Positions 20,677-39,809 of a stretch of 64,000 nucleotides of DNA are shown in pieces; position 1 is the first letter of the stretch, and the number at the start of each line of letters is the position of its first letter. Position numbers and translations under genes: made by a program. The DNA is from a virus. Where the stretch lies: IMG/VR virus record IMGVR_UViG_3300028844_004984; one strand, written 5' to 3'. The notes under the pieces are model-generated. The model was not told the DNA's origin and searched no databases. It worked only from the letters and a program-made list of their open reading frames with translations.

Positions 20677-21111
20677 ATGAAAGAAGTATTAAATAAACTA
20701 AAAGAGTTTCACTCAACGTATGGGCACCCAATCGAATTAGAGCCCACAGCTCAAACAGAAGAAATGGCTGAGTTGAGATACAAATTGGCAAAAGAAGAGT
20801 TAGATGAGTATTTGGAGGCAAATCAAAACGATGACCCTATTGAAATAGCAGATGCACTAGCTGACCAGTTGTATATTTTGTTGGGAACAATGTTGGTTCA
20901 CGGAATGCATGATGTTATCGAAGATGTGTTCAATGAAGTACATCGTTCCAATATGTCAAAGTTAGGTGAAGATGGTAACCCCATCTATCGTGATGACGGT
21001 AAGGTTATGAAAGGACCAAACTACACTAAACCAGAATTGGGTAGTATTATATCAAACGTTTGGAAAGAGAAACGAGCTCAGTTAAACATTCCGTTTAATG
21101 AGGAAGTTTAG
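20677..21111 (+). CDS. MazG-like / PRA-PH family nucleotide pyrophosphohydrolase
   Basis: 'EELDEYLEA..IADALADQLYI..G..EVHRSNMSKL..DGKVMKGPNY'. Confidence 0.85.
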   Translation: MKEVLNKLKEFHSTYGHPIELEPTAQTEEMAELRYKLAKEELDEYLEANQNDDPIEIADALADQLYILLGTMLVHGMHDVIEDVFNEVHRSNMSKLGEDGNPIYRDDGKVMKGPNYTKPELGSIISNVWKEKRAQLNIPFNEEV

Positions 21112-21112
21112 G

Positions 21113-21316
21113 ATGGCCCTAAGAGGAGAATCCCACCCGGCACATAAACTTACTGAGGAGCAAGTAAACACTATCAGAAAACTATGGAAGATTGGGCATA
21201 GGAATGTTAGGGTTTTAGCAAGAAATCATAGCGTATCACCTGCGAATATTCGTAGAATTGTTAGGAATGAAACTTGGACACATTTGTTAGTGGGTGAGTT
21301 TGATAAATACCAATAA
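21113..21316 (+). CDS. Small HTH DNA-binding protein (stand-alone HNH homing-endonuclease-type C-terminal domain)
   Basis: 'RGESHPAHKLTEEQV..IR...LAR.HSVS..NIRRIVRNETW'; no nuclease domain. Confidence 0.65.
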   Translation: MALRGESHPAHKLTEEQVNTIRKLWKIGHRNVRVLARNHSVSPANIRRIVRNETWTHLLVGEFDKYQ

Positions 21317-22074
21317 TGAAGGAAGAGGGAAAGAACTATTGTGATGTATCAAAATTATCAATCCGACCGATTTCTAAATCGGTAGCAAAGGGTATCATTA
21401 TCAACAATCATTATAGTGGGTTGTGGACAAAGGTATCATACGCATTGGGTTTGTTCGTTGAGGATGGTTCACATCAGTTTTTTGATTCTACAGATAAGTT
21501 GATTGGGGTTGCGTGTTATGGCGACCCCATTGGTAGATTGACTGGGCAATCCATATCGGAAACGTTAGATAGGACTGAGGTTTTAGAATTAGTTCGATTG
21601 TTCGTTTTTGATGGGTATGGTTCAAATATCGAAAGTTGGTTCTTATCACAAACATTTGATTGGCTGAGAACAAACGTTTCAAAGATAAAAGCACTCATAT
21701 CCTACTCAGACCCAAAAGAAGGGCACGCTGGGACAATCTATCAAGCAACAAATTGGATTTATCAAGGTAACAAACTTAGATTCAATGATAGTTGGAGTTT
21801 TAAGTTTGAAGAAGATGGAAGATGGATACATGGTAAAACCATATTTCCACAATACAGAACAAACGACCCTAAGAAGATACAAGAGCAGGTAAATAAACCT
21901 TTTTGGATTCGAAAAGAACCAAGAAAACATAGATACGTTTACATATTAGCTAGGGGCGGTGAGCGTAGGAAACTACTGAAGAATTTGAAACACCCAACAT
22001 TTCCATATCCAAAGGGAAGTGAAGATGTTGAGATGGAAGTACATAAATTACAACCAATTGAAAGAAACGGATAA
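21316..22074 (+). CDS. Mom-like GNAT DNA-modification protein, paralog 1
   Basis: 'NHYSG', 'LELVRLF...NIESWFLS', 'ISYSDPKEGHAGTIYQATNWIYQG', 'KHRYVY' match the Mu Mom family pattern. Confidence 0.8.
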   Translation: MKEEGKNYCDVSKLSIRPISKSVAKGIIINNHYSGLWTKVSYALGLFVEDGSHQFFDSTDKLIGVACYGDPIGRLTGQSISETLDRTEVLELVRLFVFDGYGSNIESWFLSQTFDWLRTNVSKIKALISYSDPKEGHAGTIYQATNWIYQGNKLRFNDSWSFKFEEDGRWIHGKTIFPQYRTNDPKKIQEQVNKPFWIRKEPRKHRYVYILARGGERRKLLKNLKHPTFPYPKGSEDVEMEVHKLQPIERNG

Positions 22075-22858
22075 AATATATTGTGATGTATCCAAAGTGC
22101 ATATAGCACCAATCGCCAAATCGATTGCTAAGGATATCATCGTAAAGAAACACTACACTCACGCGTGGACTGCGTGTAGATATGCATTGGGCATCTACTA
22201 TAAAACTGATGGTGATTCATTTCAGTTTGGAGATGATAAACTCATTGGTTGCGCAATATATGGATTCCCAGTTGGAGCAAGAGCAGCAACCTCTGTATGT
22301 GAGGGATTAACTAAGGATAACGCATTGGAGTTGACCAGATTGTACATCGATGATGGGTATGGTTCGAATATCGAATCATATGCGATGGGACAAACATTCA
22401 AATGGTTGAAAGAAAACGATAAGAACATTAAGTTGTTGATATCGTATGCCGATGCGGGACAGGAACACTTAGGTAAGATTTATCAGGCAACTAATTGGAT
22501 TTATCAAGGGTTATCAACCGACATCGCACTAATGCCAAACTATGGTATCTCACTAACGAAAGACCCGTACAATTGGATTCATAGTAGAACGGTATATTCA
22601 CTTTGGGGTAGTTCAAATTTAGACCACCTTAAAAACGAAATTGGTAAAGAGGGGCATAGTGAATTTTGGAGGAGAATGGAGCCACCAAAACACAGATACA
22701 TCCAACTATTACCACAAAACAAAAAAGAGAAGAAAGATTTGATTAAACGGTTGAAGCATGAAATCAAACCATATCCAAAGAATACGGATGATTTTAATAC
22801 AGAGGTTGTGAATCATAAAACAACTTATGTAGCTGAGAGTACCGAAAGTTTTTGGTGA
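22058..22858 (+). CDS. Mom-like GNAT DNA-modification protein, paralog 2
   Basis: 'HYTH', 'LELTRLY..NIESY', 'ISYADAGQEHLGKIYQATNWIYQG', 'KHRYI'. TTG start chosen by alignment with paralog 1 (MKETDKIYCDVSK vs MKEEGKNYCDVSK). Confidence 0.8.
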   Translation: MKETDKIYCDVSKVHIAPIAKSIAKDIIVKKHYTHAWTACRYALGIYYKTDGDSFQFGDDKLIGCAIYGFPVGARAATSVCEGLTKDNALELTRLYIDDGYGSNIESYAMGQTFKWLKENDKNIKLLISYADAGQEHLGKIYQATNWIYQGLSTDIALMPNYGISLTKDPYNWIHSRTVYSLWGSSNLDHLKNEIGKEGHSEFWRRMEPPKHRYIQLLPQNKKEKKDLIKRLKHEIKPYPKNTDDFNTEVVNHKTTYVAESTESFW

Positions 22859-23349
22859 TGAATAAAGTGTTAGTTCTAAATTCAGATTACACCCCATTGA
22901 ACGTAACAAATATGCGGCGTGGATTCATTCTTGTGATGAAAGGCAAGGCTGAAATTGTAAAAGAGGATGTGAACAAAATTGTAACTACGATTGGAGAGTT
23001 CGCTAAACCAATAATCATACGATTACTCAATTATATCGGATATCGGAATATGGGTATAAAGGTAAATCGTAAACGGATTATGAAGCGTGATGGTTTTGAG
23101 TGTGGATATTGTGGTTCGAAAAAGAATCTTACAATCGACCATATCATTCCTAAATCTCGTGGTGGTGGTAACACTTGGGATAATTTGGTGACTTGTTGTA
23201 GTAGATGTAACACAATCAAAGATGATAGGACTCCCAAAGAAGCAGATATGGTATTGAGAGTTAAACCACATCAACCATCTATATTTTCATCGGTAATTTC
23301 AGATGAAGTGGAAACTGAGTGGATTTTGTACAAAAAAAGTTTCCAATAA
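22858..23349 (+). CDS. HNH endonuclease (McrA-like)
   Basis: 'RDGFECGYCG...TIDHIIPKSRGG..WDNLVTCCSRCN..K'. Confidence 0.9.
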   Translation: MNKVLVLNSDYTPLNVTNMRRGFILVMKGKAEIVKEDVNKIVTTIGEFAKPIIIRLLNYIGYRNMGIKVNRKRIMKRDGFECGYCGSKKNLTIDHIIPKSRGGGNTWDNLVTCCSRCNTIKDDRTPKEADMVLRVKPHQPSIFSSVISDEVETEWILYKKSFQ

Positions 23350-23412: not shown

Positions 23413-24546
23413 ATGAACTTTTGGGATAGTGTAGATTATAACAATGCTAGAAAGGTGTTGGTGATACCTAATATCACTAACTCTTCTAATATTGAAAAAG
23501 ATTCGTTTATTGATGTGATACATAATCATATCAAAGGACTGGAGAAGTATGGTGAGTACTATTGGCATGTTTTAGTACCAACTGGAAATGTTACGAAGAA
23601 ACTAAACTTACCAAATGTGAAACAACATCAGATTGATATTCCAGGTGATATGATGAACCAACGTTCGTTCCCATCTGATAAGTTGATGAAACTTCTAAAG
23701 GATATCGATTATGATGTAATCTATTCACACCTGCCCGATTGGCCTCAAGTCGGTAGATACAAAAACGATATCAACACTAAAATAGTTGGGTATTGCCATT
23801 GGTGGGAAATGAAGTCCTGTAATGGTGTAGACCGTAGACCTGGTAAAGCAAAGTGGTTGTGGTTACCCATCGAACTATTAGGTATATCTCAGATGGAAAC
23901 CTGTTACTTAAATACACAAGACCAGAAGAATAGGGTGTTGGAAGAGGCGAGAGAAACATTCAATGAAGAGTTTGTTCAGAAGTTGGATGATATTCTCACT
24001 GTTTGGAACTTAGGATTGGAAGAATCCAAAATAGTATCCGAACCAAAATCAGAAAAGGAAAAGGTGATTGTATTCAACCACCGAGCAGCTGCATACAAGG
24101 GGTATCCTAAGTTTATGGAGTTGATGGAAGAATATCGTAAACAGCGACAGGATTTCAAAGTTTGGATTCCGCAATTAAATGGTAAACCACCATATGGGTG
24201 GGTAGATACTACCAAAGTACCAAAGCATGAGTACTATAAGAGATTGCAGGATTGTACCGTCGGTGTACAGATGAGGCAAACGAATTATGGTTGGAGCGTG
24301 AGTGGTACTGATTGTATGATGAATGGAACTCCAATGATTTGGCAGGAATCCGATTGTTATCACGAAATCGACCCGAATGGTATGTTCTTCAAATACAAAA
24401 AAGAATTCTTTGAGTATTTGGATAAGATGTTAGATGATGAACCATTCCGAAAAGAGCAAGAGTTAAAATCAGTAGAGAGGGCAAACGAGCTATCTAAGAA
24501 TGAGGGTAAAATGCTTGGAGAACTACACAAAAAGTTGTATATTTAA
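23413..24546 (+). CDS. GT-B fold glycosyltransferase, candidate DNA glycosyltransferase
   Basis: 'YDVIYSHLP', 'VFNHR..YKGY..F', 'GWSVSGTDCMMNGTPMI' (GT4-like signature). Lies immediately upstream of PolB. Confidence 0.7.
   Translation: MNFWDSVDYNNARKVLVIPNITNSSNIEKDSFIDVIHNHIKGLEKYGEYYWHVLVPTGNVTKKLNLPNVKQHQIDIPGDMMNQRSFPSDKLMKLLKDIDYDVIYSHLPDWPQVGRYKNDINTKIVGYCHWWEMKSCNGVDRRPGKAKWLWLPIELLGISQMETCYLNTQDQKNRVLEEARETFNEEFVQKLDDILTVWNLGLEESKIVSEPKSEKEKVIVFNHRAAAYKGYPKFMELMEEYRKQRQDFKVWIPQLNGKPPYGWVDTTKVPKHEYYKRLQDCTVGVQMRQTNYGWSVSGTDCMMNGTPMIWQESDCYHEIDPNGMFFKYKKEFFEYLDKMLDDEPFRKEQELKSVERANELSKNEGKMLGELHKKLYI
24514..24545 (+). promoter_or_regulatory. sigmaA-type promoter for PolB (inside the GT 3' end)
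   Basis: CTTG-N20-TATATTTA. ATG starts 5 nt after its last base. Confidence 0.6.
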
Positions 24547-24549
24547 GGT

Positions 24550-27066
24550 ATGTATCAAAACGCTTATTACGAAAAAGAGGGTGGTATCATCCATTGCTGG
24601 GATGATGAAAAAGGTTACTTTACCAAAAAGTATCGTAACTATGGTTATGTTAGAGATGGTAATGGTTCTTACGAATCAATCTATGGGGAACGGTTGAAGA
24701 AGATTAACTTTTGGAAAAACGAAGATAATCTAAAACTTTATGAATCGGATGTAAATGAAATGACCCGTTTCTTAATCGATGAATATGGTGATTCAGACGA
24801 GGTATCCACTGGTCATACTGTACTAACCTTTGATATTGAGGTAGAGATGAATAGTGGACTGCCCGATACAGATAAAGCAGAGAATACTATGACTTCTGTA
24901 GCATTCCACGATTCAGCAACAAACGATTATTATGCTTATGTACTAAGTGAGGGTGAAGAGATAAACAAAACTATCAAAGGGGCTAAAGTCCGTTCCTTTC
25001 GTAGTGAAGAAGATATGTTGATAGCATTTGTAAATGCTTGGGAAGAGATTTCACCGACTATCATTACGGGATGGAACATTGACTTCTTTGATGTTACATA
25101 TTTGTACAATCGATTAAAGCGGGTACTTGGGACATCAACAGCAAATAGGCTATCCCCAATCAGAAAAGTACATTGGAACAAATATCGTAAACGTTACATC
25201 ATCGCAGGTGTATCTGCATTGGATTACATCGCATTATTTAAGAACTTTACATATACGGAATATCCCAACTATCGCTTGGATACTATCGCTAAATTAGAAT
25301 TAGGTAGAGGGAAGATTGAGTACGAAGGAAACTTAGACCAATTATTCAGAGATGATATTGAGAAGTTTGTTGAATATAACTTAGTTGATGTTGAGTTGGT
25401 GGTAGATATGGATAAGAAACTACAATTCATCGATTTGGCTAGAGCAATATGCCATGCGGGTCATGTGTTCTATGAAGATTTCTTATTCTCATCGAAATGG
25501 TTAGAGGGAGCAATTCTCACATTCCTTAGACGGAGTGGTAGGGTAGCTCCGAACAAACCACAGCGGATGTTTAAAAATGCTGATGGTTCTGATGGGGAAG
25601 GTAAGTTTATAGGTGCATATGTAAAACAACCAAAGCCCGGCCTTTACAAATGGGTATACGATTTGGATTTAACATCACTATACCCATCAATCATTATGAG
25701 TATCAATATCTCACCTGAAACTAAGATTGGTAAGGTGAAGAACTACTCCGCTGAAGAATCTATGAAGGGAAATATTGAATCATATTCTATTATAGATAAT
25801 AATGGTAGTGAATCAAAGCCCGTATCAAAAGAACACTTTACCAACTTTATTGAACAACAAAAGCTATCAATAGCATCAAATGGTGTGTTGTATTCACAGA
25901 ATAGGGTTGGTATCATACCTGAGATTCTTAACGTGTGGTTTGATAAGAGAGTAGAGTACAAAGACCTGATGAAAAAATATGGTAAAGAGGGTAATGATGA
26001 ACTTTATAAGTTCTACTCTCAGCGCCAGTTGGTACAAAAAATTATGTTGAATTCCCTTTACGGAGTATTGGGATTACCATCATTCAGATTCTACGATGTT
26101 GATAACGCAGAAGCAGTAACACTTACAGGTCAGACTGTAATTAAAACAACTGAGATGATTGCCAATCAATACTATAGTAAGAACATTGGTGAAACAAAAG
26201 ATTACAACATCTATGTTGATACTGATTCTGTATTCTATGAAGCAGCACCATTGGTAAAGGCTAGGAATCCTAATATTGATGTAACATCTGATAAAGAAAT
26301 GATTCCAGCTATTCTATCAGTTGCTAAAGAGGTTGAGGACCATATCAATAAAGTATATGATTCAATGGCATTGAAAATGTTCAATATTAATTCACATAGA
26401 TTTGATATTAAGCAAGAAACTATCGCTAAGGGTGGGTTTTGGGTATCTAAGAAAAGATACGCTCAATGGATTATCAACGATAACACTGTAGATTGTGATA
26501 AGTTGGATGTGAAAGGATTGGATGTGAAACGTTCATCATTCCCAACTTACTTCAAAGAAGTGATGAGTACTGTGTTGATGGATATCCTAAAGGATGAGAA
26601 CAAAGATAAAATTGATGAGTATATTCTTAGGAAGAAAGATGAGATGAAAACTACCAACTTTATCGATATAGCAAAGAATTCAGCAGTTAAAGGTATGAGT
26701 AAGTATACATTTAAGAATCAAGCACTGGGTGAGTTTATGAAAGGAACACCAGCGCATGTTAAAGCAGCACTTACTTACAATCAACTATTGAAATATTATA
26801 ATGCAGCATTTAAATTTGAACCAATGAAAGATGGTGATAAGATTAAGTGGGTGTATTTGAAACCTAATCCATTAGGATTAGACTCCGTTGGGTTGACGGG
26901 ATATAACGACCCGAAAGAGATTTTGGATTTGGTAGAACAGCATATAGATTATGAGCTAATTTGGACAAAAGAATTAGAGAATAAGTTAGATGATTTCTAC
27001 AAAGCAATGGGGTGGGAAAAGCCAAATCCGAATCTAGCAAAAGCATCACAATTTTTTGGATTTTAA
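24550..27066 (+). CDS. DNA polymerase family B (gp43-like)
   Basis: Exonuclease 'FDIEV', 'GWNIDFFD', 'YNLVD'; polymerase 'DLTSLYPS', 'KIMLNSLYG', 'YVDTDS', 'KKRY'; C-terminal 'SQFFGF'. Confidence 0.97.
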   Translation: MYQNAYYEKEGGIIHCWDDEKGYFTKKYRNYGYVRDGNGSYESIYGERLKKINFWKNEDNLKLYESDVNEMTRFLIDEYGDSDEVSTGHTVLTFDIEVEMNSGLPDTDKAENTMTSVAFHDSATNDYYAYVLSEGEEINKTIKGAKVRSFRSEEDMLIAFVNAWEEISPTIITGWNIDFFDVTYLYNRLKRVLGTSTANRLSPIRKVHWNKYRKRYIIAGVSALDYIALFKNFTYTEYPNYRLDTIAKLELGRGKIEYEGNLDQLFRDDIEKFVEYNLVDVELVVDMDKKLQFIDLARAICHAGHVFYEDFLFSSKWLEGAILTFLRRSGRVAPNKPQRMFKNADGSDGEGKFIGAYVKQPKPGLYKWVYDLDLTSLYPSIIMSINISPETKIGKVKNYSAEESMKGNIESYSIIDNNGSESKPVSKEHFTNFIEQQKLSIASNGVLYSQNRVGIIPEILNVWFDKRVEYKDLMKKYGKEGNDELYKFYSQRQLVQKIMLNSLYGVLGLPSFRFYDVDNAEAVTLTGQTVIKTTEMIANQYYSKNIGETKDYNIYVDTDSVFYEAAPLVKARNPNIDVTSDKEMIPAILSVAKEVEDHINKVYDSMALKMFNINSHRFDIKQETIAKGGFWVSKKRYAQWIINDNTVDCDKLDVKGLDVKRSSFPTYFKEVMSTVLMDILKDENKDKIDEYILRKKDEMKTTNFIDIAKNSAVKGMSKYTFKNQALGEFMKGTPAHVKAALTYNQLLKYYNAAFKFEPMKDGDKIKWVYLKPNPLGLDSVGLTGYNDPKEILDLVEQHIDYELIWTKELENKLDDFYKAMGWEKPNPNLAKASQFFGF

Positions 27067-27129: not shown

Positions 27130-27825
27130 ATGAAAAAAGCAAGTATTGAAAGTTTCATTAACCGATACAATCTCGGTGGTGAAGTAGAATCGGTAAAGAT
27201 TACATCTACTGATTCGGAGATGAAGGTAAGTTTTATCTCAGATGATAAAACTTTGTTAGGAGAGGTAACCTCTAAAGAGGGTGATTTTCCCAATGGTGAG
27301 TTTGGTGTTTACACAACTTCTCAGTTAAAAGCACTTTTGGGTGTATTAGAATCTAATGTGGAGGTTGACTCTACTGAATCTTACATCAAGTTTTCAGATA
27401 AGGGTACATCGGTTAATTATATGCTGGCAGACCTTTCTGTGATTCCAGTTGTTCCTGATTTGAAGCAAGTACCACCTTTCAACTCAGAAGTTACTTTGAA
27501 CGATGAGTTTACATCTAAGTTTATCAAATCAAAAGGAGCGCTGAGTGAATCAGATACATTTACATTTAGTTGTATTGGTGATAAGGGTGAGGTTGTTTTA
27601 GGATATTCCACAATTAACACTAACCGAATCTCAATCTCAGTAGAATGTAAGTGTGATGGGGATGTACAACCAATCTCATTTTCAGCTAAGTATCTGAAAG
27701 AAATCCTAAATGCTAACAGAGCCTCTAAATCTGCTACATTAAAAATTTCATCGCAGGGGCTTTCTTACATTGAATTTGAAACAGATACCATCACATCAAA
27801 ATACTATTTGGTAGAGATTAAATAA
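27130..27825 (+). CDS. Sliding clamp (gp45/PCNA-like)
   Basis: 231 aa, beta-rich, 'FGVY..SQL...L', C-terminal 'KYYLVE'. Lies between PolB and the clamp loader. Confidence 0.8.
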   Translation: MKKASIESFINRYNLGGEVESVKITSTDSEMKVSFISDDKTLLGEVTSKEGDFPNGEFGVYTTSQLKALLGVLESNVEVDSTESYIKFSDKGTSVNYMLADLSVIPVVPDLKQVPPFNSEVTLNDEFTSKFIKSKGALSESDTFTFSCIGDKGEVVLGYSTINTNRISISVECKCDGDVQPISFSAKYLKEILNANRASKSATLKISSQGLSYIEFETDTITSKYYLVEIK

Positions 27826-29039
27826 TGAGTATGAACTTTTGGGATACAGAACCAGCTAAACCAATCTTTGACTTTGAAACTCAAAAGAGGGAGTTAATCG
27901 AAAATATGGATTATCTATCTTCGATGACAGTTGAAGAACAAACACTTTACAAAAAGTGGGTTGAGTTACAAGAGCCCTCTATGATTAGGGATAAATCGCA
28001 CATTGCGGAACTATACCCAACACAGTGGGCTCCGGCTGATATTAACAATTTGGAACAAACCATTTCGGAGATTGAAGCGTTAGAACCTTATGTTGAGATT
28101 GTAGAAGATGCTAAGGATTCTACTAAATGGGCATATCTCAGAAGGATGATTCATACAATGGGGTTTACCGCCAATCCTGGTCGAAACGTTAAGATTAATG
28201 TTAAAGATAGGGTTACTGGAAAGCTTTTAGGGCAGATATCACTAGCATCTGATGTAACCTCTATGAAGGTTAGAGATGACTATATTGGGTGGAGTAAAGA
28301 TAATAAGTTCGTAGATAAAAAACTCAACCATACTACAATAGCATCTACAATTGTGTGTACTCAGCCACTTGGATTTAACTTCTTAGGTGGTAAGTTAGTT
28401 GCTATGATGACCACTGTGCCTGAAGTGAGGGAGTTTTGGAAAGATAAATATGGCCAGACCCTTATAGCAGTTGGGACTACATCTCTGTATGGAATTCACT
28501 CTCAGTACAATGGTATTCCTCACTTCAAAACATTAGGTGAATCGGCCGGAAAGATTTCAATAAAACCAGATGATAAGTACTACGAACCTTGGCATCAATG
28601 GATTAAAGAAAACAGAGCAGATTGGTACGAAACTGCAATTACGAATGAAAGAATCCGTAATGGTAAAAGTATGGGTGTAGCAAGTGGGCCTGTAAGTGGT
28701 ATCAAACAAAAGATTCTTGGGCAGATATTCAAAGAATGTGGTATCAAACAATCAGATTATCATCATGGGTTTAAAAGAGGTGTATATCTCGCTATGATGT
28801 ATGAGAATGGGCCGGAGTTCCTTAAAGGTGAAATTGGTGAAGATGAGCTAAAGATGAAGCAGAAGTTCGAAGAGGGTGTGGATTACATCAGTAGATGGTG
28901 GAAGAAAAAGGCAATAAAACGATACACCAAACTACACTCTGAAGGTAGATTGAAGCCAGAGCATTTGTTCTATATCGATGCGATTGGTATGAGTTGGGAA
29001 GATATGAAAAGTAAGTATTTGAAAGAAGTTGGTAGATAA
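27825..29039 (+). CDS. DruA/DUF4338-like protein
   Basis: 'PGRN...DRVTGKLLG.ISLASD...RDDYIGW', 'FNFLGGKLVAM', 'TTSLYG..SQYN', 'LGESAG', 'HGFKRGVY' match the Druantia DruA family pattern. Confidence 0.75.
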   Translation: MSMNFWDTEPAKPIFDFETQKRELIENMDYLSSMTVEEQTLYKKWVELQEPSMIRDKSHIAELYPTQWAPADINNLEQTISEIEALEPYVEIVEDAKDSTKWAYLRRMIHTMGFTANPGRNVKINVKDRVTGKLLGQISLASDVTSMKVRDDYIGWSKDNKFVDKKLNHTTIASTIVCTQPLGFNFLGGKLVAMMTTVPEVREFWKDKYGQTLIAVGTTSLYGIHSQYNGIPHFKTLGESAGKISIKPDDKYYEPWHQWIKENRADWYETAITNERIRNGKSMGVASGPVSGIKQKILGQIFKECGIKQSDYHHGFKRGVYLAMMYENGPEFLKGEIGEDELKMKQKFEEGVDYISRWWKKKAIKRYTKLHSEGRLKPEHLFYIDAIGMSWEDMKSKYLKEVGR

Positions 29040-29971
29040 TGAATAACACAGAAAACACACTTTGGGTTGAGAAGTACAGACCCGATACATTGGAAGGGTA
29101 TGTTGGAAACGAACATATCCTTGAGAAAGTAAAGATTTACATTGAGAATGAGGATGTACCTCACTTGCTACTCTATGGTGTGGCGGGTACTGGTAAGACT
29201 ACCCTCGCTAAAATCATTACCAATCAGATTGATTGTGATGTGATGTACATCAACGCTTCGGATGAAAACAACGTAGATACAGTTAGGGATAAGATTAGAG
29301 GATTCGCATCATCGATGGGATTCCGTAAGTGGAAAGTGATTATTTTGGATGAGAGCGATTACCTAACTCCGAACGCACAGGCGGCACTTCGTAATCTAAT
29401 GGAAACGTTCTCCAAAACAACACGATTCATTTTGACGTGTAACTATGTTGAAAAAATCATCGACCCAATTCAGAGTAGATGCCAAACGTTTGGTATTACA
29501 CCACCATCTAAGAAAGAGGTGGCGCTGCGTTTGAAAGAGATTTTGGATTCTGAGAATGTATCATATGAGATGCAGGATTTAGCTATTTTGGTAAATAGTG
29601 GATATCCTGATATTCGTAGAGTTCTGAACGCAGGACAACGGCAGGTTATAAAGGGTGAATTGAAGATTGATAAAACATCAACGATTCAAGCGAATTATAT
29701 GGATGAGGTATTGAATGTACTTAAATCTGATGGTAATGTAAAAGAGGTGTTCCTAAAGAGTAGGCAGATTATCGCAGATTCAAAAGTTAAGGACTTCACA
29801 CCATTCTACAGATTTTTGTACGATAATGTAGATGATTTCGCAGCTGGAAAAGTGGGTAACACAATAATCAAAATTGCAGATGCTCAATACAAAGATGCAT
29901 CAGTAGTGGATAAAGAAATCAACATCGTAGCGATGTTATTGGAAATTTTAATTGATATCAAAGGAAAATAA
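29039..29971 (+). CDS. Clamp loader AAA+ subunit (gp44/RFC-like)
   Basis: 'LWVEKYRP', 'GVAGTGKTT', 'INASDE', 'ILDESD', 'IQSRC'. Confidence 0.95.
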   Translation: MNNTENTLWVEKYRPDTLEGYVGNEHILEKVKIYIENEDVPHLLLYGVAGTGKTTLAKIITNQIDCDVMYINASDENNVDTVRDKIRGFASSMGFRKWKVIILDESDYLTPNAQAALRNLMETFSKTTRFILTCNYVEKIIDPIQSRCQTFGITPPSKKEVALRLKEILDSENVSYEMQDLAILVNSGYPDIRRVLNAGQRQVIKGELKIDKTSTIQANYMDEVLNVLKSDGNVKEVFLKSRQIIADSKVKDFTPFYRFLYDNVDDFAAGKVGNTIIKIADAQYKDASVVDKEINIVAMLLEILIDIKGK

Positions 29972-29973
29972 TT

Positions 29974-30243
29974 ATGGCAAAAGGAAAGGGAAAATCAAAA
30001 ATAGTTGGAATGGGACAACCAACACAACAAGCACCACAAATGCAGTTAGACCCAACAAAGTTACCAACGGTACATTGTGAGAATTGTGATTCTATTTTTT
30101 GGGAAGAAGTGACAATGTTCAAAGAAGTTCCAGCGGTTCAATCACCGAATGGGCAGAAATCAATGTTACCAATTCCTGTAGTTAGATGTGCAGAGTGTGG
30201 GCATGTATCGGAAAAGTTTTTACCTAAAGAGTTATTACCTTAA
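29974..30243 (+). CDS. Zn-ribbon protein
   Basis: CENC...CAECGH. Confidence 0.7.
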   Translation: MAKGKGKSKIVGMGQPTQQAPQMQLDPTKLPTVHCENCDSIFWEEVTMFKEVPAVQSPNGQKSMLPIPVVRCAECGHVSEKFLPKELLP

Positions 30244-30698
30244 TGGCAAAAAAGAAAAGTGATAACACTGTAAAGGCTAAGAGTATCTTCCAACATCTTA
30301 GTGGTATAAAGGAGAAAAAAGATTCTTGGGAATCTCTATCTGAGATGGATAAGAAATCATTTACTCCATTTATCATAAATCGTTGGTTAAGTATGAACTT
30401 GGACTTACTACCTATCATAAATGTACTACAGAAGTACACAATCGGCTTGTTATCCGCCAGAGATGTATACAAAGTGTATTTGGATTTTCTACCAAAGCAA
30501 AAAACATTTGATAAGTACATCAAAGGTAAGAAAGATGGTAAGTACAACAAAGAGTTACTACAACACCTATCAACTTGGTATGGTGTATCACATAGAGAAG
30601 TAATTGATTATTTGGATATACTACCAAAGGATGAGGTGATTTCGATTCTAATGAAGTATGGTATGACCGATAAGGAAGCAAAAAAGTTATTGAAATGA
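30243..30698 (+). CDS. Clamp loader small subunit (gp62-like)
   Basis: 'FTPFIINRWLSM' and 'WYGVSHREVIDYL' gp62-like pattern, downstream of gp44. Confidence 0.8.
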   Translation: MAKKKSDNTVKAKSIFQHLSGIKEKKDSWESLSEMDKKSFTPFIINRWLSMNLDLLPIINVLQKYTIGLLSARDVYKVYLDFLPKQKTFDKYIKGKKDGKYNKELLQHLSTWYGVSHREVIDYLDILPKDEVISILMKYGMTDKEAKKLLK

Positions 30699-31105
30699 GC
30701 GAAGTATTAAGAGAATCAAAAACCAAAGTAGTTCACAGAGGTGAGCGAGTGGTTACAACGAATAAAGAAGAAACTGCAGTACAATACTGCGAACGAATGT
30801 ATCCTGATACCACAAATGAGTTCAAAGTTATTTTGGATGAGATGTATGATACATTCTGTAAGAAGCAACGTAACTATGGGCCAGGTAATATTTCGGTGGG
30901 AACTGATTTGAAAACCGATGATGATAAGAAGTTATCATTAACTGGGCTGTGGTTCAGAATCAACGATAAGGTTCAGCGATTGAAGCAATTGGTTGTATTA
31001 GGTCAACCAGATGAGGTTGGAGAATCAGTACAAGATACATATCAGGATTTGAGTGTATATGGTGTGATTGCTCAGATTGTTCAACGTGGAAAGTGGGCTA
31101 AATGA
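30695..31105 (+). CDS. Nucleotide-modification-associated domain 1 (DUF1599/Nmad1, MazG-like)
   Basis: 'KKQRNYG', 'RINDKVQRL', 'ESVQDTYQDLSVYGVI'. Confidence 0.75.
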   Translation: MSEVLRESKTKVVHRGERVVTTNKEETAVQYCERMYPDTTNEFKVILDEMYDTFCKKQRNYGPGNISVGTDLKTDDDKKLSLTGLWFRINDKVQRLKQLVVLGQPDEVGESVQDTYQDLSVYGVIAQIVQRGKWAK

Positions 31106-31539
31106 ACTGGAATGAATATTTCAGAGGTATAGCACACCAAGTAAAACTAAAATCAAAGGATGAACGTACTCAGATAGGTGCTGTTATCGTTGGAACTGAT
31201 AACGAAATCGTATCAACTGGGTACAATTCATTTCCCAGAGGTATTGTTGATTCTAAATCAGAAAGACAAGAAAGGCCTGAAAAATACTATTGGTTTGAGC
31301 ACGCAGAACGAAACGCAATCTACAACGCAGCTAGAATTGGAGTATCCACGAAAGGTTGTAGAATGTATCTAACTTGTGGTATTCCGTGTTCTGATTGTGC
31401 TAGGGGTATTATAAACGCAGGTATCATCGAAATCTATTGTGAGCGAGAGGGTGGTGCAACGGGCAGTAAGTGGGATGAATCAGCTATCCGTTCAATGAAG
31501 ATGTTCAATGAAACTGGAATAGAAATAAAATTCTATTAA
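31102..31539 (+). CDS. dCMP deaminase
   Basis: 'SKD..QIGAVIV', 'TGYNS', 'HAERNAI', 'PCSDC'. Confidence 0.92.
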   Translation: MNWNEYFRGIAHQVKLKSKDERTQIGAVIVGTDNEIVSTGYNSFPRGIVDSKSERQERPEKYYWFEHAERNAIYNAARIGVSTKGCRMYLTCGIPCSDCARGIINAGIIEIYCEREGGATGSKWDESAIRSMKMFNETGIEIKFY

Positions 31540-33487: not shown

Positions 33488-34885
33488 ATGAGTAAACAAA
33501 GAAAAAAACCTCTGATACTTCTGTTATCAGATGATTTAAGATTACATAGTGGTATAGCTACTATGTCAAAACAGATAGTGCTAAATACAGCACATAAATA
33601 TGATTGGTTGCAGGTTGGAGCAGCAGTTAAACATCCCGATGAAGGTAAGTTCTTCGATGTATCTGATTCTGTAAATGAAGAAGCGGGAATAGATAATGCG
33701 AGTGTTCGTATTATACCTCAGAGTGGATATGGTAATCAACAATTAATCAAACACCTAATTACTACTGAGAATCCAGATGCCATTCTACACTTTACCGACC
33801 CTCGTTTTTGGGGATGGTTGTATGCAATGGAAGATGAGATTCGTAGACACATCCCAATTTTTTACTACAACATTTGGGATGATTTGCCAGACCCAATGTG
33901 GAACGCACCATTCTATGGAAGTTGTGATTTGTTGATGGGTATCTCAAAACAAACATATGGTATCAACAAAAGAGTAATGGATAAGTATGGTATGCCTATG
34001 GACGATTGGCAAATCCAATATGTACCACATGGTGTTTCAGATAAGTTTAAACCAATCGCTAAAGATTCAGAAGAGTATCAGCATGTTTTAAAAATGAAAT
34101 CTGATTTGGGCATTGTAGATAAGAAATTTGTGGTTCTGTATAATAACAGAAATATCAGACGTAAAAATCCTGGAGATGTGGTACTAGCATACAAAGAGTT
34201 TTGTGATACTCTAAGTGAAGATGAAGCAAAGGATGTAGTGCTACTATTCCATACATCAAAAGTAGACCCGAATGGTACTGACCTGCCTGAAGTGGTTAAG
34301 AATGTATGTCCTGATTATGATGTAGTATTCACTAATCAGCAATATTCTACTGAAGAACTTAATCATATTTACAACTTAGCAGATGTTACAATTAATATGG
34401 CATCAAATGAGGGATTTGGGTTGGCTACATGCGAATCCGCTAATGCTGGAACACCCATTATTGTAAACGTTACTGGTGGGATGCAAGACCAGTGTGGATT
34501 TACAATTGATGGTAAATACATTGAAGCAGATGAATATGTTAAAATTGGCTCTCTACATGATAAGAAGAAACTACCTCATAATTTAAGTTGGGGTAGTTGG
34601 GTAAACCCAATATGGCCAACGAATCGTTCACTACAGGGTTCACCAGCAACACCATACATTTTCGATGATAGATGTTCTTTTGAAGATGCGGGTAAGGCAA
34701 TACGGCAGTGGTATGATACTACTGAAGAACGTAGAATCGAATGCGGGTTGGAAGGTTCTGAGTGGATGAAATCAAAAGAAAGTGGTATGAGTTCTAAGGA
34801 GATGGGAACTCGATTTATTGATGCTATGGAAACAGCATTTAAAAAATGGCAACCTATAAATAAAGTAACATTATGGAAGATATAA
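33488..34885 (+). CDS. Glycosyltransferase family 4 (GT-B)
   Basis: 'NNRNIRRK', 'YNLADV....SNEGFGLATCES..AGTPII..VTGG'. Preceded by TACTTATT late-type motif. Confidence 0.9.
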   Translation: MSKQRKKPLILLLSDDLRLHSGIATMSKQIVLNTAHKYDWLQVGAAVKHPDEGKFFDVSDSVNEEAGIDNASVRIIPQSGYGNQQLIKHLITTENPDAILHFTDPRFWGWLYAMEDEIRRHIPIFYYNIWDDLPDPMWNAPFYGSCDLLMGISKQTYGINKRVMDKYGMPMDDWQIQYVPHGVSDKFKPIAKDSEEYQHVLKMKSDLGIVDKKFVVLYNNRNIRRKNPGDVVLAYKEFCDTLSEDEAKDVVLLFHTSKVDPNGTDLPEVVKNVCPDYDVVFTNQQYSTEELNHIYNLADVTINMASNEGFGLATCESANAGTPIIVNVTGGMQDQCGFTIDGKYIEADEYVKIGSLHDKKKLPHNLSWGSWVNPIWPTNRSLQGSPATPYIFDDRCSFEDAGKAIRQWYDTTEERRIECGLEGSEWMKSKESGMSSKEMGTRFIDAMETAFKKWQPINKVTLWKI

Positions 34886-36201
34886 AAAAGTTTTGTGTAG
34901 TTAGTTGTCCTATTTCAACCAGAAGTGGTTATGGGGCTCGTAGTAGAGATTTTGTAAGGGCTTTGATTAAATCGAAGCCGGACTGGGATATCCAAATCTT
35001 ATCACAGAGATGGGGGCAGACTGCAATGGATGCGTTGGCACCAGGAATCGATGATGATTTGTTAAATAGAATCATTACAAAAAAAGAAGATAAAAAACCA
35101 AATGTTTGGATTCAGATTACTGTTCCAAATGAGTTTCAACCTGTAGGTGATTATAACATCGGTGTAACTGCTGGTGTTGAAACGACTATCATGCCTCCTG
35201 AGTGTTTAGAGGGTATGAATCGTATGGATAAGGTATTGGTATCATCTAACTTTACCAAAGAGGTTATTCAAAAGACTGTGTTTGATAAGAAGGATGAGAA
35301 AACAAACCAATCGGTCGGTCAGTTGAAATGTGAAACTCCCATTGAGGTACTATTTGAGGGTATTAATTTGGATATCTACAATAATAAGGCAGAGCGTGAA
35401 CCAGCGATTGATGATGTTATGCGTGATGTATCGGAATCGTTTTGTTTCCTATTCGTTGGGCATTGGCTGCAAGGAGATTTTATGCAAGATAGAAAGAATG
35501 TATCAGGTCTAATATGGACATTCTTAAATGCGTTTAAGAACAAAACGAAACAACCAGCACTCATACTAAAAACCAGTAGGGGTAATACTTCTTTGGTGGA
35601 TAGACATGAACTTAGAAAAATAATCCAACAGATAAAATCACAATGTGATTCAACCCGACTTCCTAATATATACCTACTACATTCTGATTTGACAGATGAG
35701 GAAATGAACGCTCTGTACAACCACCCGAAGGTAAAAGCACACGTATCATTTACTCGTGGTGAGGGATTTGGTAGACCGTTGTTGGAAGCTACCATTAGTG
35801 GTAAACCAATGGTTGTATCAGGATGGTCTGGTCAAACGGATTTTTTGAATCCTGAGTACGTTAATCTTATAAATGGTAAGCTAACACAGGTACACAAATC
35901 CGCATCGGATAAGAAGTTCCTTTTGAATGAAGCTTCTTGGTTTGAGATTGATTACAATATGGCGGGTAGTACTATGAAGGATATGGTTGATAACTATAAG
36001 AAGTACTTAGAGAAGTCCAGAAAGCATAGACAGTACACAAAAGATAGATTTACCTTTAACCATATGGTAGAACTATTGGGTACTCGACTTGAGGATGTAA
36101 ACTCTAAACCACAAACTGTTGGATTAAAACTACCAAAGTTGAAGAAGAAAGAAGAACCGAAAAAAGTAGAACTACCTAAATTGAAAAAGGTAACTAACTA
36201 A
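34873..36201 (+). CDS. Glycosyltransferase family 4 (GT-B)
   Basis: 'TRSGYG', 'DRKNV', 'TRGEGFGRPLLEA..SGKP....WSG..DF'. Confidence 0.9.
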   Translation: MEDIKKFCVVSCPISTRSGYGARSRDFVRALIKSKPDWDIQILSQRWGQTAMDALAPGIDDDLLNRIITKKEDKKPNVWIQITVPNEFQPVGDYNIGVTAGVETTIMPPECLEGMNRMDKVLVSSNFTKEVIQKTVFDKKDEKTNQSVGQLKCETPIEVLFEGINLDIYNNKAEREPAIDDVMRDVSESFCFLFVGHWLQGDFMQDRKNVSGLIWTFLNAFKNKTKQPALILKTSRGNTSLVDRHELRKIIQQIKSQCDSTRLPNIYLLHSDLTDEEMNALYNHPKVKAHVSFTRGEGFGRPLLEATISGKPMVVSGWSGQTDFLNPEYVNLINGKLTQVHKSASDKKFLLNEASWFEIDYNMAGSTMKDMVDNYKKYLEKSRKHRQYTKDRFTFNHMVELLGTRLEDVNSKPQTVGLKLPKLKKKEEPKKVELPKLKKVTN

Positions 36202-36725
36202 TGGCTGGGTATTACAATACACATCTAAGGAAAACATCAGACCCCACTCCAATTACGAAAACTAAAATGGAGAGGGGTATGGTGGTTAAAATTAAGTACA
36301 AAAAAGATACAGGTACAAAGTTGTATTTGGTATTTGTACTACAACCAAAATGGCCAAATACGACTGAAGGTAAGTTACATGGTCTATCCTTAGATGCAGT
36401 ATCTCCTGGTAAACTTTTAGAAATAGCAGAAATCTACAATGAAGTGATATCAAAATCATCAAAGGTTAAAAGATTAGATTTAGCTAAGATTCAAATCAAC
36501 GAAGCATCTAAAGTGTTCTATACATCAGAAATCAAAACTGAGAAACAACTGAAGGCATCGTATCGTACATTCAATCTATTAGATATTAAATCAGTTCAAG
36601 CAGTAAACTATGATTGGGGTAAATTTGATTTGGTTCCTGATAGAGATGCTAGAAGAAAACAGATGGAAGAGGAAGCTAAGATGAGAAAAGAAGCTGCTGA
36701 GGCTAAGAAGGAATTGGGTAACTAA
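36201..36725 (+). CDS. Hypothetical protein (weak resemblance to T4 gp2-like DNA end protector)
   Basis: 174-aa coupled ORF; 'LVFVL...LHGLSL...YRTF'. Confidence 0.45.
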   Translation: MAGYYNTHLRKTSDPTPITKTKMERGMVVKIKYKKDTGTKLYLVFVLQPKWPNTTEGKLHGLSLDAVSPGKLLEIAEIYNEVISKSSKVKRLDLAKIQINEASKVFYTSEIKTEKQLKASYRTFNLLDIKSVQAVNYDWGKFDLVPDRDARRKQMEEEAKMRKEAAEAKKELGN

Positions 36726-36783
36726 CTGATTATCAACACGATAGCTATGATAGTGAGCACAAAAGTAAAAAGTACGGATGATA

Positions 36784-36815
36784 TTTGTTTAAATGAACAT
36801 TTTTTCGTATATTAG
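36784..36815 (+). promoter_or_regulatory. sigmaA-type promoter heading the glycan island
   Basis: TTTG-N20-TATATTAG. Confidence 0.7.
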
Positions 36816-36833
36816 TAGTAATATAGATACATT

Positions 36834-37457
36834 ATGAAAATAAGTTACGCAGTTACAGTATGTAACGAATTAGTTGAAATACAAAAATTGATTCCATTTC
36901 TACTGAAGAACAAACGCAGTGAGGATGAGATTGTGGTACTTTTTGATTCTGAGAATGGCTCATCTTCTGTAGAAGAGTATTTAAGAACACATTCTGTAAA
37001 TGGGCAATATTACTGGTTTAAGTATGGGTTCGATGGCCACTTCGCTGATATGAAGAATGAACTTACCAAACATTGTAATGGTGATTACATTTTTCAGATT
37101 GATGCGGATGAGATACCACACGAAACGTTGATAGAGAATTTATCAGATATTTTGGAAGCAAATGATATAGATGTGATTCTCGTACCACGAGTAAATACAG
37201 TTGAGGGGTTAACTCAAAACCACATTCAAAAGTGGGGATGGAACGTCAATGAGAAAGGTTGGGTAAATTGGCCAGATGTTCAATGGAGAATCTATAAGAA
37301 TTCAGAATCCATCCAATGGGAGAATAAGGTACATGAGAAGCTTGTTGGATACAAAACAATATCCCATCTACCAGTTCAAGAGGAACTAGCACTATACCAT
37401 CCAAAAAATATAGAGCGACAAGAAAAACAAAATGAATATTACAATACATTAACCTGA
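36834..37457 (+). CDS. Glycosyltransferase family 2
   Basis: 'ISYAVTVCNE', 'YIFQIDADE', 'WENKVHE'. Confidence 0.9.
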   Translation: MKISYAVTVCNELVEIQKLIPFLLKNKRSEDEIVVLFDSENGSSSVEEYLRTHSVNGQYYWFKYGFDGHFADMKNELTKHCNGDYIFQIDADEIPHETLIENLSDILEANDIDVILVPRVNTVEGLTQNHIQKWGWNVNEKGWVNWPDVQWRIYKNSESIQWENKVHEKLVGYKTISHLPVQEELALYHPKNIERQEKQNEYYNTLT

Positions 37458-38299
37458 TGAGCATGAAAAGAAATATTGGGATTATTGGGCAGGGTTTTGT
37501 AGGTAACGCTATTTATCAGAAGTTTAAGAATTACTTTGAGGTATCAACATTTGATTTAGATAAATCTAAGAGAAACACAGATACATTAGAATCTGTGGTT
37601 AAAAATTCAGATGTTGTGTTTGTGTGTGTACCTACACCAATGCGTAGAATTGATGGTACGTGTGATATTAGCATAGTTGAATCAGTTCTAACCGAAATCA
37701 ATAATGTGGGTAAGGATGTGATTACCGTAATCAAATCAACAATTCCACCAACTACAACTGAAATGTTTAATGAAACGTTTTCTAACTTAACGGTAGTTTT
37801 CAATCCTGAGTTTTTAACTGAGGCAAACGCAGTTAGTGATTTTGAAAACCAATCTAAGATTATTTTAGGAGGACCGAAAAAAGGAACTACACTACTGAAG
37901 CAAATTTATCGATTAGTATTTCCAACAACACCCATCATTAAGACGGGCTCGACTCATGCAGAGATGGTAAAGTACCTAACAAATTCATTTTTAGCAACAA
38001 AAGTATCATTCGCAAACGAGATGTATCAGATTTGTGATAAACTTGGTTTGGATTATGATAAAGTTGTTGAGTATTCAACTTACGATGATAGATTAGGAAA
38101 ATCCCATTGGGCGGTTCCTGGACCAGATGGGGATTTTGGATATGGTGGGCATTGTTTTCCAAAAGATGTTAAAGCATTAATTCATTTAGCAGAAGAATTA
38201 GAATTGTATCCAACTATGTTAAGAGCTACTGATAAGAAAAACAACGTGGTTCGGAAAAATAGGGATTGGGAACAAATGGAAGGTAGAGCGGTATCATAA
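37457..38299 (+). CDS. ugd: UDP-glucose/GDP-mannose dehydrogenase (lacks C-terminal domain)
   Basis: 'GQGFVG', 'CVPTP', 'KSTIPP', 'NPEFL', 'AEMVKY..N..LATKVSFANE', 'GYGGHCFPKD'. Confidence 0.9.
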   Translation: MSMKRNIGIIGQGFVGNAIYQKFKNYFEVSTFDLDKSKRNTDTLESVVKNSDVVFVCVPTPMRRIDGTCDISIVESVLTEINNVGKDVITVIKSTIPPTTTEMFNETFSNLTVVFNPEFLTEANAVSDFENQSKIILGGPKKGTTLLKQIYRLVFPTTPIIKTGSTHAEMVKYLTNSFLATKVSFANEMYQICDKLGLDYDKVVEYSTYDDRLGKSHWAVPGPDGDFGYGGHCFPKDVKALIHLAEELELYPTMLRATDKKNNVVRKNRDWEQMEGRAVS

Positions 38300-39138
38300 T
38301 GCAGTTTTGGAGAACATACAATAATAGAGTACATCCCGTAGGTGAGGTTGCACAATTGGGGTTTCCATTATCCGAACCATCGTACATACCAGATGAGTAT
38401 TTGGATGGTCAAAACTTTGTGATTCTACGAACGTGTTTCGGATTGGGTGATTGGGGTATCATATCAGCATTCCCACGTAAATTGAAAGAGAAGTATCCCG
38501 ATTGTAAAGTTTGGATACCATCTCCGAAGTTACTGAGAGAAATGTTTGGGGGATTAGCACATAATTGGTCTGCTTGGGATGACCCATTTCAGGTAGTACA
38601 TTCTATCTTTGATAACAATCCATATGTAGATGGGTTTATTGATTCTTTTGAGGGGGAAGTGTTCAACGACCACTATCGTATTACAGATGGTGGAGATACT
38701 CCCCTAATGGAAGAATTGTTGAGGTTTTGGCAATTTGATGAGTTTGAGGATATCGAACCCGAACTATACTTTAGCGATGAAGAAAAATCACTTGGTGACC
38801 GAATCATCAAAGAACATTGTGATGGGGATTTCGGAACTCTTCTAATCTCAAATAGATTTGATGGCGATGGGGTTGATAAAATCCAACAAAAAATTAATGA
38901 GTATGACCTAACTATGTTCTACTGGACTAAATCTACTGATGTGGGGTTGGATTTCAAAAAAGCATTGGATATGAGACACATCAACACTCGTATTCAGTTA
39001 TACATCAAAACAAAGGCAAAGTTTAATGTAGGTAACCAAACTGGGGTGAATGATACCATCGCAAACTATTCACCAACCTATACAATTGCCAGACCTAATC
39101 TTGGGTCAAACTTGGTTAGAAGTGAGATTTATTTATGA
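38299..39138 (+). CDS. GT9 (heptosyltransferase)-like protein
   Basis: 'GLGDW.....R.LKEKYPD', 'FDNNPYVD', 'PELYFS.EE'. Confidence 0.6.
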   Translation: MQFWRTYNNRVHPVGEVAQLGFPLSEPSYIPDEYLDGQNFVILRTCFGLGDWGIISAFPRKLKEKYPDCKVWIPSPKLLREMFGGLAHNWSAWDDPFQVVHSIFDNNPYVDGFIDSFEGEVFNDHYRITDGGDTPLMEELLRFWQFDEFEDIEPELYFSDEEKSLGDRIIKEHCDGDFGTLLISNRFDGDGVDKIQQKINEYDLTMFYWTKSTDVGLDFKKALDMRHINTRIQLYIKTKAKFNVGNQTGVNDTIANYSPTYTIARPNLGSNLVRSEIYL

Positions 39139-39809
39139 GAGTAGTAGTATATACAGCGATTATTGGTGGGTATGACACACTTAATGAACCACTCGTAAAA
39201 CCAGATGGTGTGGACTTTGTTTGTTTTACCGATAGGGATATGGAATCTGAAACTTGGGAGATTCAAAAGGTAACCCCATTGTATGATGATAACACACGAA
39301 CTGCACGGAAGTATAAGGTATTACCACATCGGTGGTTTTCAGATTACGATGTGAGTATTTGGGTAGATGGTAATAAGGTTATAGCGGGTGATGTTTTAGA
39401 TTACATCTCACAATTGGGAGAGGGTAATCTTTCACTGTTTGACCATATGGAATGTTTCGATAAAAGAAATTGTGTGTATCAAGAAGCAAATGCTATTTTT
39501 AAGTTAGGGCAAGAGCCGGGTAAAACTTACAAAGATAACCCATTAACTATAAAATCCCAAATGGAACGATATCTTTCTGAAGGATATCCACAAAATAATG
39601 GATTGGCATTTACTTGCGTTGTGGTTCGGAAACACAACGACTCAGATACCATCAATCTGATGGAAAATTGGTGGACTGAAATAAAATATGGTTCTAAGAG
39701 AGACCAGTTAAGTTTTGATTACGTTGCTTGGAAAAATAACTATGATTTTAAGTATCTAAGTGGTGATGGTAGAAATGATGGTATAATAACACATAAACCA
39801 CACCTATGA
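39135..39809 (+). CDS. DUF616 (TOD1/MUCI70-like) glycosyltransferase
   Basis: 'VYTAIIGGYD', 'CFTD', 'KVLPH', 'SIWVDG', 'RNCVYQEA', 'RDQLSF'. Confidence 0.85.
   Translation: MRVVVYTAIIGGYDTLNEPLVKPDGVDFVCFTDRDMESETWEIQKVTPLYDDNTRTARKYKVLPHRWFSDYDVSIWVDGNKVIAGDVLDYISQLGEGNLSLFDHMECFDKRNCVYQEANAIFKLGQEPGKTYKDNPLTIKSQMERYLSEGYPQNNGLAFTCVVVRKHNDSDTINLMENWWTEIKYGSKRDQLSFDYVAWKNNYDFKYLSGDGRNDGIITHKPHL

Follow-up and report, generated by a model that had tools for sequence, protein, structure and literature searches.

The gene described here lies on the plus strand of a 64,000-nucleotide stretch of DNA (the window) from IMG/VR virus record IMGVR_UViG_3300028844_004984, and it encodes a protein related to DruA (Table 1). 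The window reads as one long plus-strand operon of a T4-like phage, in which this gene stands between those for a sliding clamp and its clamp loader. DruA is the signature protein and the first gene of type I Druantia (DruABCDE), a bacterial anti-phage system, and its activity is not known. An earlier note on this DNA had placed the gene in the DUF4338 family, and the search with a hidden Markov model (HMM) that was proposed there as a check agrees with it: the DruA model PF14236 matches the open reading frame (ORF) with 78.8 bits (E 5e-22) over residues 74–335 and profile positions 38–297 of 297, for a curated cut-off of 27 bits. The DruA models of PADLOC match at E 7e-17 and phrog_19197, a phage family whose function is unannotated, at E 4e-34. 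DUF4338 has already been assigned as a GNAT domain (PMC10853773).

Table 1. Coordinates of the DruA-like gene, of its parts and of the neighbouring genes in the window.
Feature	Position	Strand	Basis or remark
DruA/DUF4338-family GNAT gene	27825..29039	+	404 residues; a start at 27831 would give 402 residues beginning MNFWD
Disordered N-terminal tail, residues 3–18, MNFWDTEPAKPIFDFE, with two aromatic pairs; candidate clamp-docking peptide	27831..27878	+	model, conservation
GNAT catalytic core with large β6-β7 insertion (residues 81–336)	28065..28832	+	model and VIA-align
gp45-like sliding clamp, directly upstream	27130..27825	+	phrog_223, E 3.5e-12; PCNA_C 18.6 bits, sub-threshold
gp44-like clamp-loader large subunit, directly downstream	29039..29971	+	phrog_168, E 1.9e-82; AAA, DNA_pol3_delta2 and Gp44_lid domains
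gp62-like clamp-loader small subunit	30243..30698	+	Phage_clamp_A, 26.9 bits for a cut-off of 27
Family B DNA polymerase (PolB) ending ...ASQFFGF	24550..27066	+	domain match; aromatic C-terminal tail of the T4/RB69 clamp-binding type
GT4-like glycosyltransferase, N-terminus MNFWD	23413..24546	+	domain match; start conserved as M[NS]FW[DE] in L004–L007
Two tandem Mom-family (PF25680) genes, about 5 kb upstream of the DruA-like gene	21316–22074 and 22019–22858	+	148.5 and 153.5 bits

The ORF is joined to both neighbours by overlapping stop and start codons of the form TAATG, at 27822–27826 with the clamp gene and at 29036–29040 with the clamp-loader gene, which bears out the translational coupling that had been noticed at both of its ends. 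Since the start in all close relatives corresponds to the second ATG (27831), with MNFWD or MSFWD as part of a common start M[NS]FW[DE]..., the true start of the gene may be there rather than in the TAATG at 27825. The phage families matched on either side leave the gp45–gp44 pair split by the gene, as the note had it, and some homologues of the upstream ORF carry the JGI name "sliding clamp". Farther downstream a small Zn-ribbon protein is encoded between the gp44-like and gp62-like genes. None of the ten largest ORFs of the window has a PADLOC match, no MZB/DUF1998 domain, as expected of the helicase DruE beside its DEAD/helicase part, is present in the 113-kb virus record (itself about 59% complete, the genes that flank the ORF being replication genes), and directly downstream of the DruA-like gene, where DruB, DruC and DruD would be looked for, are the genes for the clamp loader, the Zn-ribbon protein and the gp62-like protein. 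The two marks of type I Druantia membership, DruE in the locus and DruB–D downstream, are thus both absent here, and the description of the gene as a solo DruA holds for the record at hand.

Canonical DruA–D loci were collected by a scan of prokaryote genomes from Pseudomonas, Chromobacterium and Rheinheimera, in which three ORFs of about 555, 630 and 343 residues come after the homologue, the pattern of DruB–D. When a bacterial DruA profile built from the proteins of these loci and from other bacterial DruA was aligned by hhalign with the profile of the phage proteins, the two matched with a probability of 100% and an E value of 1e-47 over 275 columns, corresponding to phage residues 65–370. 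In an alignment that included the DruA of all three genera, residues R120, G136, R150, G155, P181, G189, K190, T218, T219, S220, G223, Y228 and G238 are invariant between the phage protein and operon DruA. All of the residues conserved across the family are therefore kept, which suggests an active enzyme, and the ORF encodes a full and intact member of the family, not a remnant. The GNAT core, the insertion between strands β6 and β7, the invariant residues and the nearest solved structure, the Mom protein of phage Mu, are common to both proteins, at an identity of about 20%. Their contexts differ, the bacterial gene having DruB–E as partners and the phage gene the clamp and clamp loader, and so do their ends: the N-terminal 65 or so residues form a disordered MNFWD tail and a helical hairpin in the phage protein and an LKRKLREHL...GF domain in bacterial DruA, a 12-residue insert that follows YG in bacterial DruA is missing from the phage protein, and the latter has an extra C-terminal tail, LFY...W...YL..VGR. 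In Paenibacillus and Gorillibacterium (L038 2048–8828 and L044 2054–8855) the DruA homologue overlaps the end of a preceding ORF of about 1,835 residues, an architecture unlike the DruA–D order of Pseudomonas.

Marine metagenomes contain about 2,800 homologues of the protein, the closest of them 79–88% identical to it, and the order glycosyltransferase, PolB, clamp and DruA-like gene is kept on four related long contigs (L004–L007). In these relatives the DruA-like gene begins 2–17 nucleotides past the clamp gene, and the stretch from it to gp44 is variable, with an ORF of 84 residues in three contigs and an ORF of 121 residues plus a dUTPase in the fourth, so that the double TAATG overlap is specific to this genome. 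A recent horizontal insertion was considered and rejected, because the GC content of the gene (0.37–0.40) matches that of its neighbours (0.32–0.39) and because synteny is conserved on the four relatives. The word "inserted", which the earlier note had used of the gene, consequently does not apply in any recent sense; the gene shows no compositional anomaly, is a conserved resident of its clade and is widespread in marine T4-like phages. No nucleotide-level relative among cultured phages was found by megablast. Mosig and HTVC008M, which are phages of Pelagibacter, and some 25 T4-like phages of Synechococcus carry more distant homologues, with 27–35% identity. In the Synechococcus phage S-T4 the gene lies between gp44 and gp62, likewise inside the clamp-loader cluster, and in the Pelagibacter phages it follows gp46/47 and adjoins a peptide deformylase or MazG gene. 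The DruA-like gene has long been established in the replication module of this clade, which is large and consists of uncultured marine T4-like phages.

Phage genes of this family are themselves already known. They are gathered in phrog_19197 and annotated in GenBank, where the Mosig protein is a "DUF4338 domain-containing protein" and one record labels its homologue "mom", and those of Synechococcus phages have been noted in the Phold preprint (10.1101/2025.08.05.668817). From these recorded proteins, which belong to the same family at the identities given above, the present clade is set apart by the position of the gene directly after the clamp gene and by the MNFWD tail, the Pelagibacter homologues having another location, another N-terminus and genomes without Mom genes. 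Folds like that of the DruA-like protein are also present in giant viruses of eukaryotes (Faunusvirus, Yasminevirus and Dasosvirus; BFVD entries A0A3G4ZXG3, A0A5K0UAJ3 and A0A3G4ZRA1), with Foldseek E values from 7e-19 to 1e-8 and in some cases within proteins of more than 1,100 residues.

The AlphaFold2 model of the phage protein (m91dc5a825243) has a mean predicted local distance difference test (pLDDT) value of 93.6 and a predicted template-modelling score of 0.89 and adopts a GNAT fold. The earlier note had suggested a GNAT or Mom-like fold and a structural comparison with Mom, and in an exhaustive comparison with 48,161 representative chains of the PDB by VIA-align the top solved match of the model is indeed Mu Mom (8bv8_B), with Z 10.0 and a root-mean-square deviation (rmsd) of 3.9 Å over 168 of 202 residues, covering model residues 81–336. 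Generic GNATs trail at Z of 8.7 or less, and nearly all of the 50 best matches listed are GNAT-fold proteins. An independent model of the DruA from a DruA–D operon of Pseudomonas graminis (pLDDT 82.7) also places Mom first, with Z 10.7 and an rmsd of 3.8 Å over 169 residues, the next match being at 9.7. Mom is a GNAT whose donor is Gly-tRNAGly: in double-stranded DNA it attaches the glycine to adenine at N6, and its β6-β7 insertion is required for this (PMC13219725). The larger insertion of the DruA family appears to lie at the same β6-β7 site, judging from the predicted secondary structure and from the description of Mom in that paper. The proteins thus resemble each other in their GNAT fold, in this insertion and in being matched in structure, while the DruA-like protein is twice as long as Mu Mom (PF25680; PDB 8bv8) and has additional helical parts at its N- and C-termini. 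A search of PDB sequences with the family profile gave no meaningful match, and the Foldseek matches in the PDB were limited to weak GNAT and p300 hits with E values of 1e-3 or worse. The literature searched contained no paper linking Druantia to a GNAT or Mom-like enzyme.

Some 5 kb upstream the window encodes two true members of the Mom family, and for this reason the DruA-like protein is not the Mom of this phage. Their products are 44% identical to each other and conserve residues H58, Y59, R111, S124, D149, Y159 and W181 of Mu Mom, so that Mom-type modification of adenine is probably carried out by the phage besides whatever the DruA-like enzyme does. In the Pfam scan the Mom HMM (PF25680) did not match the DruA-like ORF, DruA being the sole family matched. 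Since Mosig, HTVC008M and S-T4 carry the DruA-like gene and are without Mom genes, the former is independent of the latter.

Pointers to a substrate come from the domains fused to this one. An N-terminal ParB_N domain is present in five of the 20 long representatives that were scanned, a UDG domain in one and a DUF3102 domain in one. In the ESM Atlas the ParB_N–DruA fusion makes up a cluster with 235 members, of which 80% are viral, and the UDG–DruA fusion is a single ORF of 640 residues on its contig. ParB_N is commonly fused to the DNA methyltransferases of phages. A C-terminal homing-endonuclease part, GIY-YIG (SegE-type) with NUMOD3, was seen in two of the 20 representatives (P0267 and P0271), which may be true fusions or may represent read-through of an inserted homing endonuclease gene. 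Because the ParB_N and UDG partners act on DNA and because the gene lies in the clamp and clamp-loader cluster of two phage lineages, DNA is favoured as the target, and we infer that it would be the substrate. As to the donor, the phage clade has a near-canonical acyl-CoA (coenzyme A) loop, Q180-P-L-G183-F-N185 as compared with Q/RxxGxG/A, of which the pattern Q..G.N is not conserved in bacterial DruA; the donor could be an acyl-CoA or an aminoacyl-tRNA. HTVC008M encodes an odd tRNA-Gly (L002 9944–10017) with the unusual anticodon ACC and the non-canonical T-loop GGAGCGUUACC, to which the Rfam tRNA model gives 49.5 bits and which lies 3.9 kb downstream of the DruA-like gene of that phage. Neither the window nor the rest of the 113-kb record contains a tRNA-like RNA according to ARAGORN and to Rfam searches at E values up to 1.

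The N-terminus of the protein is the part that might bring it to the replication fork. Residues 1–16 are unstructured in the model, with pLDDT below 50 at residues 1–7 and no secondary structure predicted before residue 17. About 120 close homologues share the strongly conserved motif M[NS]FW[DE]TEP.KP.F[DI]F[ED]. The MNFWD pentapeptide also starts the unrelated glycosyltransferase encoded upstream of PolB, where it is kept in the relatives, and it resembles both the C-terminus of PolB (SQFFGF) and that of the second Mom paralogue (ESFW). The PolB C-termini of the relatives read SKFFGF or EKFFAF, and elsewhere they read SLEDFFG (S-T4), SLEAFFG (Mosig) and NLEDFF (HTVC008M). A further ORF of the window, 38299–39138, begins MQFWR, a terminal motif of the same kind. 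Other plus-strand ORFs with a terminal F[FW], namely L095 8445–9389, a baseplate-hub-like ORF and an ORF of 101 residues ending in DFW, had no informative annotation.

Short aromatic peptides on a disordered terminus are the means by which several enzymes are held on sliding clamps: the T4 and RB69 polymerases use a C-terminal peptide, and the N-terminal PCNA-interacting protein (PIP) boxes of UNG2, DNMT1 and DNA ligase I bring these enzymes to PCNA. The DruA-like protein is similar in the nature and position of its peptide and, in addition, its gene adjoins that of the clamp, but its NFWD and FDF motifs are not a canonical PIP box and clamp binding is here a prediction. In a complex prediction for the clamp trimer with residues 1–40 the score was 0.44, the best of three controls scoring 0.00, which lends weak support to docking; over the runs the contact agreement was at least 27% and the pLDDT of the partner at least 39, about 40. 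The mark used for docking is reached by 58 of 80 solved complexes and by two of 110 mismatched pairs, and with scores of 0.60 or less it is reached by only seven of the 80 solved complexes and by both of the passing mismatches. A clamp–peptide complex of this type has been solved for RB69, and since such complexes are already among the solved structures the pass may reflect no more than likeness to them. Docking of the tail on the clamp is accordingly put forward as a tentative prediction, which we hold to be somewhat less probable than its converse.

Several other genes of the window belong to the same surroundings. Upstream of the Mom pair is a MazG/PRA-PH-like pyrophosphohydrolase gene (20677–21111), and an HNH endonuclease gene (22852–23349) lies between the second Mom paralogue and the glycosyltransferase. 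Downstream of the clamp-loader genes, a gene for DUF1599, the "nucleotide modification associated domain 1" (Nmad1-like), is coupled to one for dCMP deaminase (30695–31539). Nucleotide-pool enzymes of the DUF1599, dCMP deaminase and MazG types are typical of phages with modified bases. The region from 33488 to 40798 is a block of sugar enzymes, which comprises two GT1-type glycosyltransferases (one of them matching "GT4-conflict"), a GT2, a protein like UDP-glucose/GDP-mannose dehydrogenases and a TOD1/MUCI70-like glycosyltransferase, and which includes the MQFWR ORF mentioned above.

Taken together, these results led us to propose that the DruA-like gene encodes a replication-coupled DNA acyl- or aminoacyltransferase that protects the phage DNA, a reading to which we assign a probability of about 0.5. 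A solo GNAT acyltransferase of the DruA family would work outside any Druantia system and would place an acyl or aminoacyl group on phage DNA, either on a base or on an already modified base, during replication or just after it, as Mu Mom does with glycine from Gly-tRNA. The flexible N-terminal tail, MNFWD...FDF, may dock the enzyme on the sliding clamp in the fashion of a PIP box, and the modified phage DNA would escape the nucleases of the host. The suggestion made earlier that the protein is a DNA-modifying enzyme survives in this form as a prediction and as the best-supported reading, on account of the fusions to ParB_N and UDG and of the place that the gene has among the replication genes.

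A number of observations weigh against this proposal. The lead of Mom over generic GNATs is small, 1.0–1.3 in Z, and hhalign found no significant relation between the profile of the phage DruA-like proteins and that of Mom (probability 0.7%); the profile of bacterial DruA reached 12.7%, through a single strand motif (KLIG....GDP). In an alignment of secondary structures made by eye, the essential Mom residues R111, S124, D149 and R151 have no evident identical counterparts, the equivalent positions being T/S, G188/K190 and T218–S220, and for this reason the chemistry may differ from that of Mom and the protein is not classed as a member of the Mom family. As a group, GNATs act on proteins and small molecules far oftener than on DNA. 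With respect to the clamp, three docking runs scored 0.44, 0.00 and 0.45, a weak pass only, and outside this clade the N-terminal motif occurs in a few near relatives only, the Pelagibacter and Synechococcus homologues having other starts. One motif-bearing relative (P0126) does not adjoin clamp genes, so that a rule by which the motif is always clamp-adjacent was rejected and the link is not general.

The comparison with generic GNATs also bears on what the enzyme would act upon. Dozens of GNATs that modify proteins or small molecules match at Z 7.5–8.7, close behind Mom, and an N-acetyltransferase directed at replisome or host proteins, or at a metabolite such as a polyamine, would leave the DNA untouched. 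Such an enzyme would be in keeping with the near-canonical acyl-CoA loop QPLGFN of the phage clade, and clamp docking, if real, would suit it too. The recurrent fusions, on the other hand, are with DNA-binding and DNA-processing domains (ParB_N, UDG), Mom ranks first for two independent models, and bacterial DruA does not share the Q..G.N loop, and we consider an enzyme of this kind unlikely. The same fusions point away from RNA, which would be the substrate if the protein acetylated aminoacyl-tRNA in the manner of the AtaT/TacT toxins, or acted like TmcA, in order to shut off the host or to control translation. Among the weaker structural matches are TmcA (2zpa, by Foldseek), the toxin 7byy (Z 7.7) and FemA (Z 7.8), and in HTVC008M the odd tRNA-Gly is found about 3.9 kb from the DruA-like homologue. 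A companion tRNA-Gly would fit the use of a tRNA donor by a Mom-like enzyme equally well, however, and no tRNA-like RNA was found in this 113-kb record; an RNA-directed enzyme is in our judgement quite improbable.

Two further explanations start from the part played by the family in defence. A phage copy of DruA could be a mimic of the host protein that poisons or titrates the DruB–E complex, a counter-defence role that had also been raised in the earlier note. Apart from the homology to DruA, and from the fact that phages are in general known to carry mimics of defence components, no positive evidence for such a role was found. A mere decoy would not be expected to retain all family-invariant residues, which suggest an active enzyme, and the protein departs from bacterial DruA in its first 65 or so residues and in its C-terminal tail. 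Hosts as unlike as SAR11, Synechococcus and those of this clade have phages in which the gene is conserved, related folds occur in giant viruses, and fusions to ParB_N or UDG would make no sense in a decoy, all of which makes this explanation very unlikely. The solo enzyme might alternatively serve the phage itself as a defence or exclusion gene by marking or attacking the DNA of competing phages and mobile elements, since the family is used in bacterial defence and defence genes are also carried by phages. The searches described above found no partner of the effector nuclease or helicase kind, and the gene, which is nearly universal in the clade and lies within the core replication operon, is unlike accessory defence islands, so that we give this possibility hardly any credence.

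A wider model can also be formulated, in which all proteins of the DruA/DUF4338 family would transfer acyl or aminoacyl groups to nucleic acids, as Mom does. In very abundant marine T4-like phages a solo DruA would ride on the sliding clamp by means of its N-terminal aromatic peptide and would write a novel modification into the DNA at the fork. In the present phage it would act together with the two Mom enzymes and the glycosyltransferase, which bear the same peptide, and in type I Druantia DruA would be the self-marking module that is missing there; we offer this extension as speculation that is much more likely to be wrong than right. Independent of it, this solo and intact DruA enzyme, which abounds in the metagenomes of marine phages with homologues in the thousands, provides a simple system in which the chemistry of the family can be approached. 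Should the clamp-docking peptide prove real, it would be a phage parallel to the PCNA-tethered DNMT1 and UNG2. If DNA is the substrate, the phages concerned, which are ecologically dominant, would carry a new DNA modification, and a distinction between self and non-self by means of a mark written by DruA would be suggested for type I Druantia.

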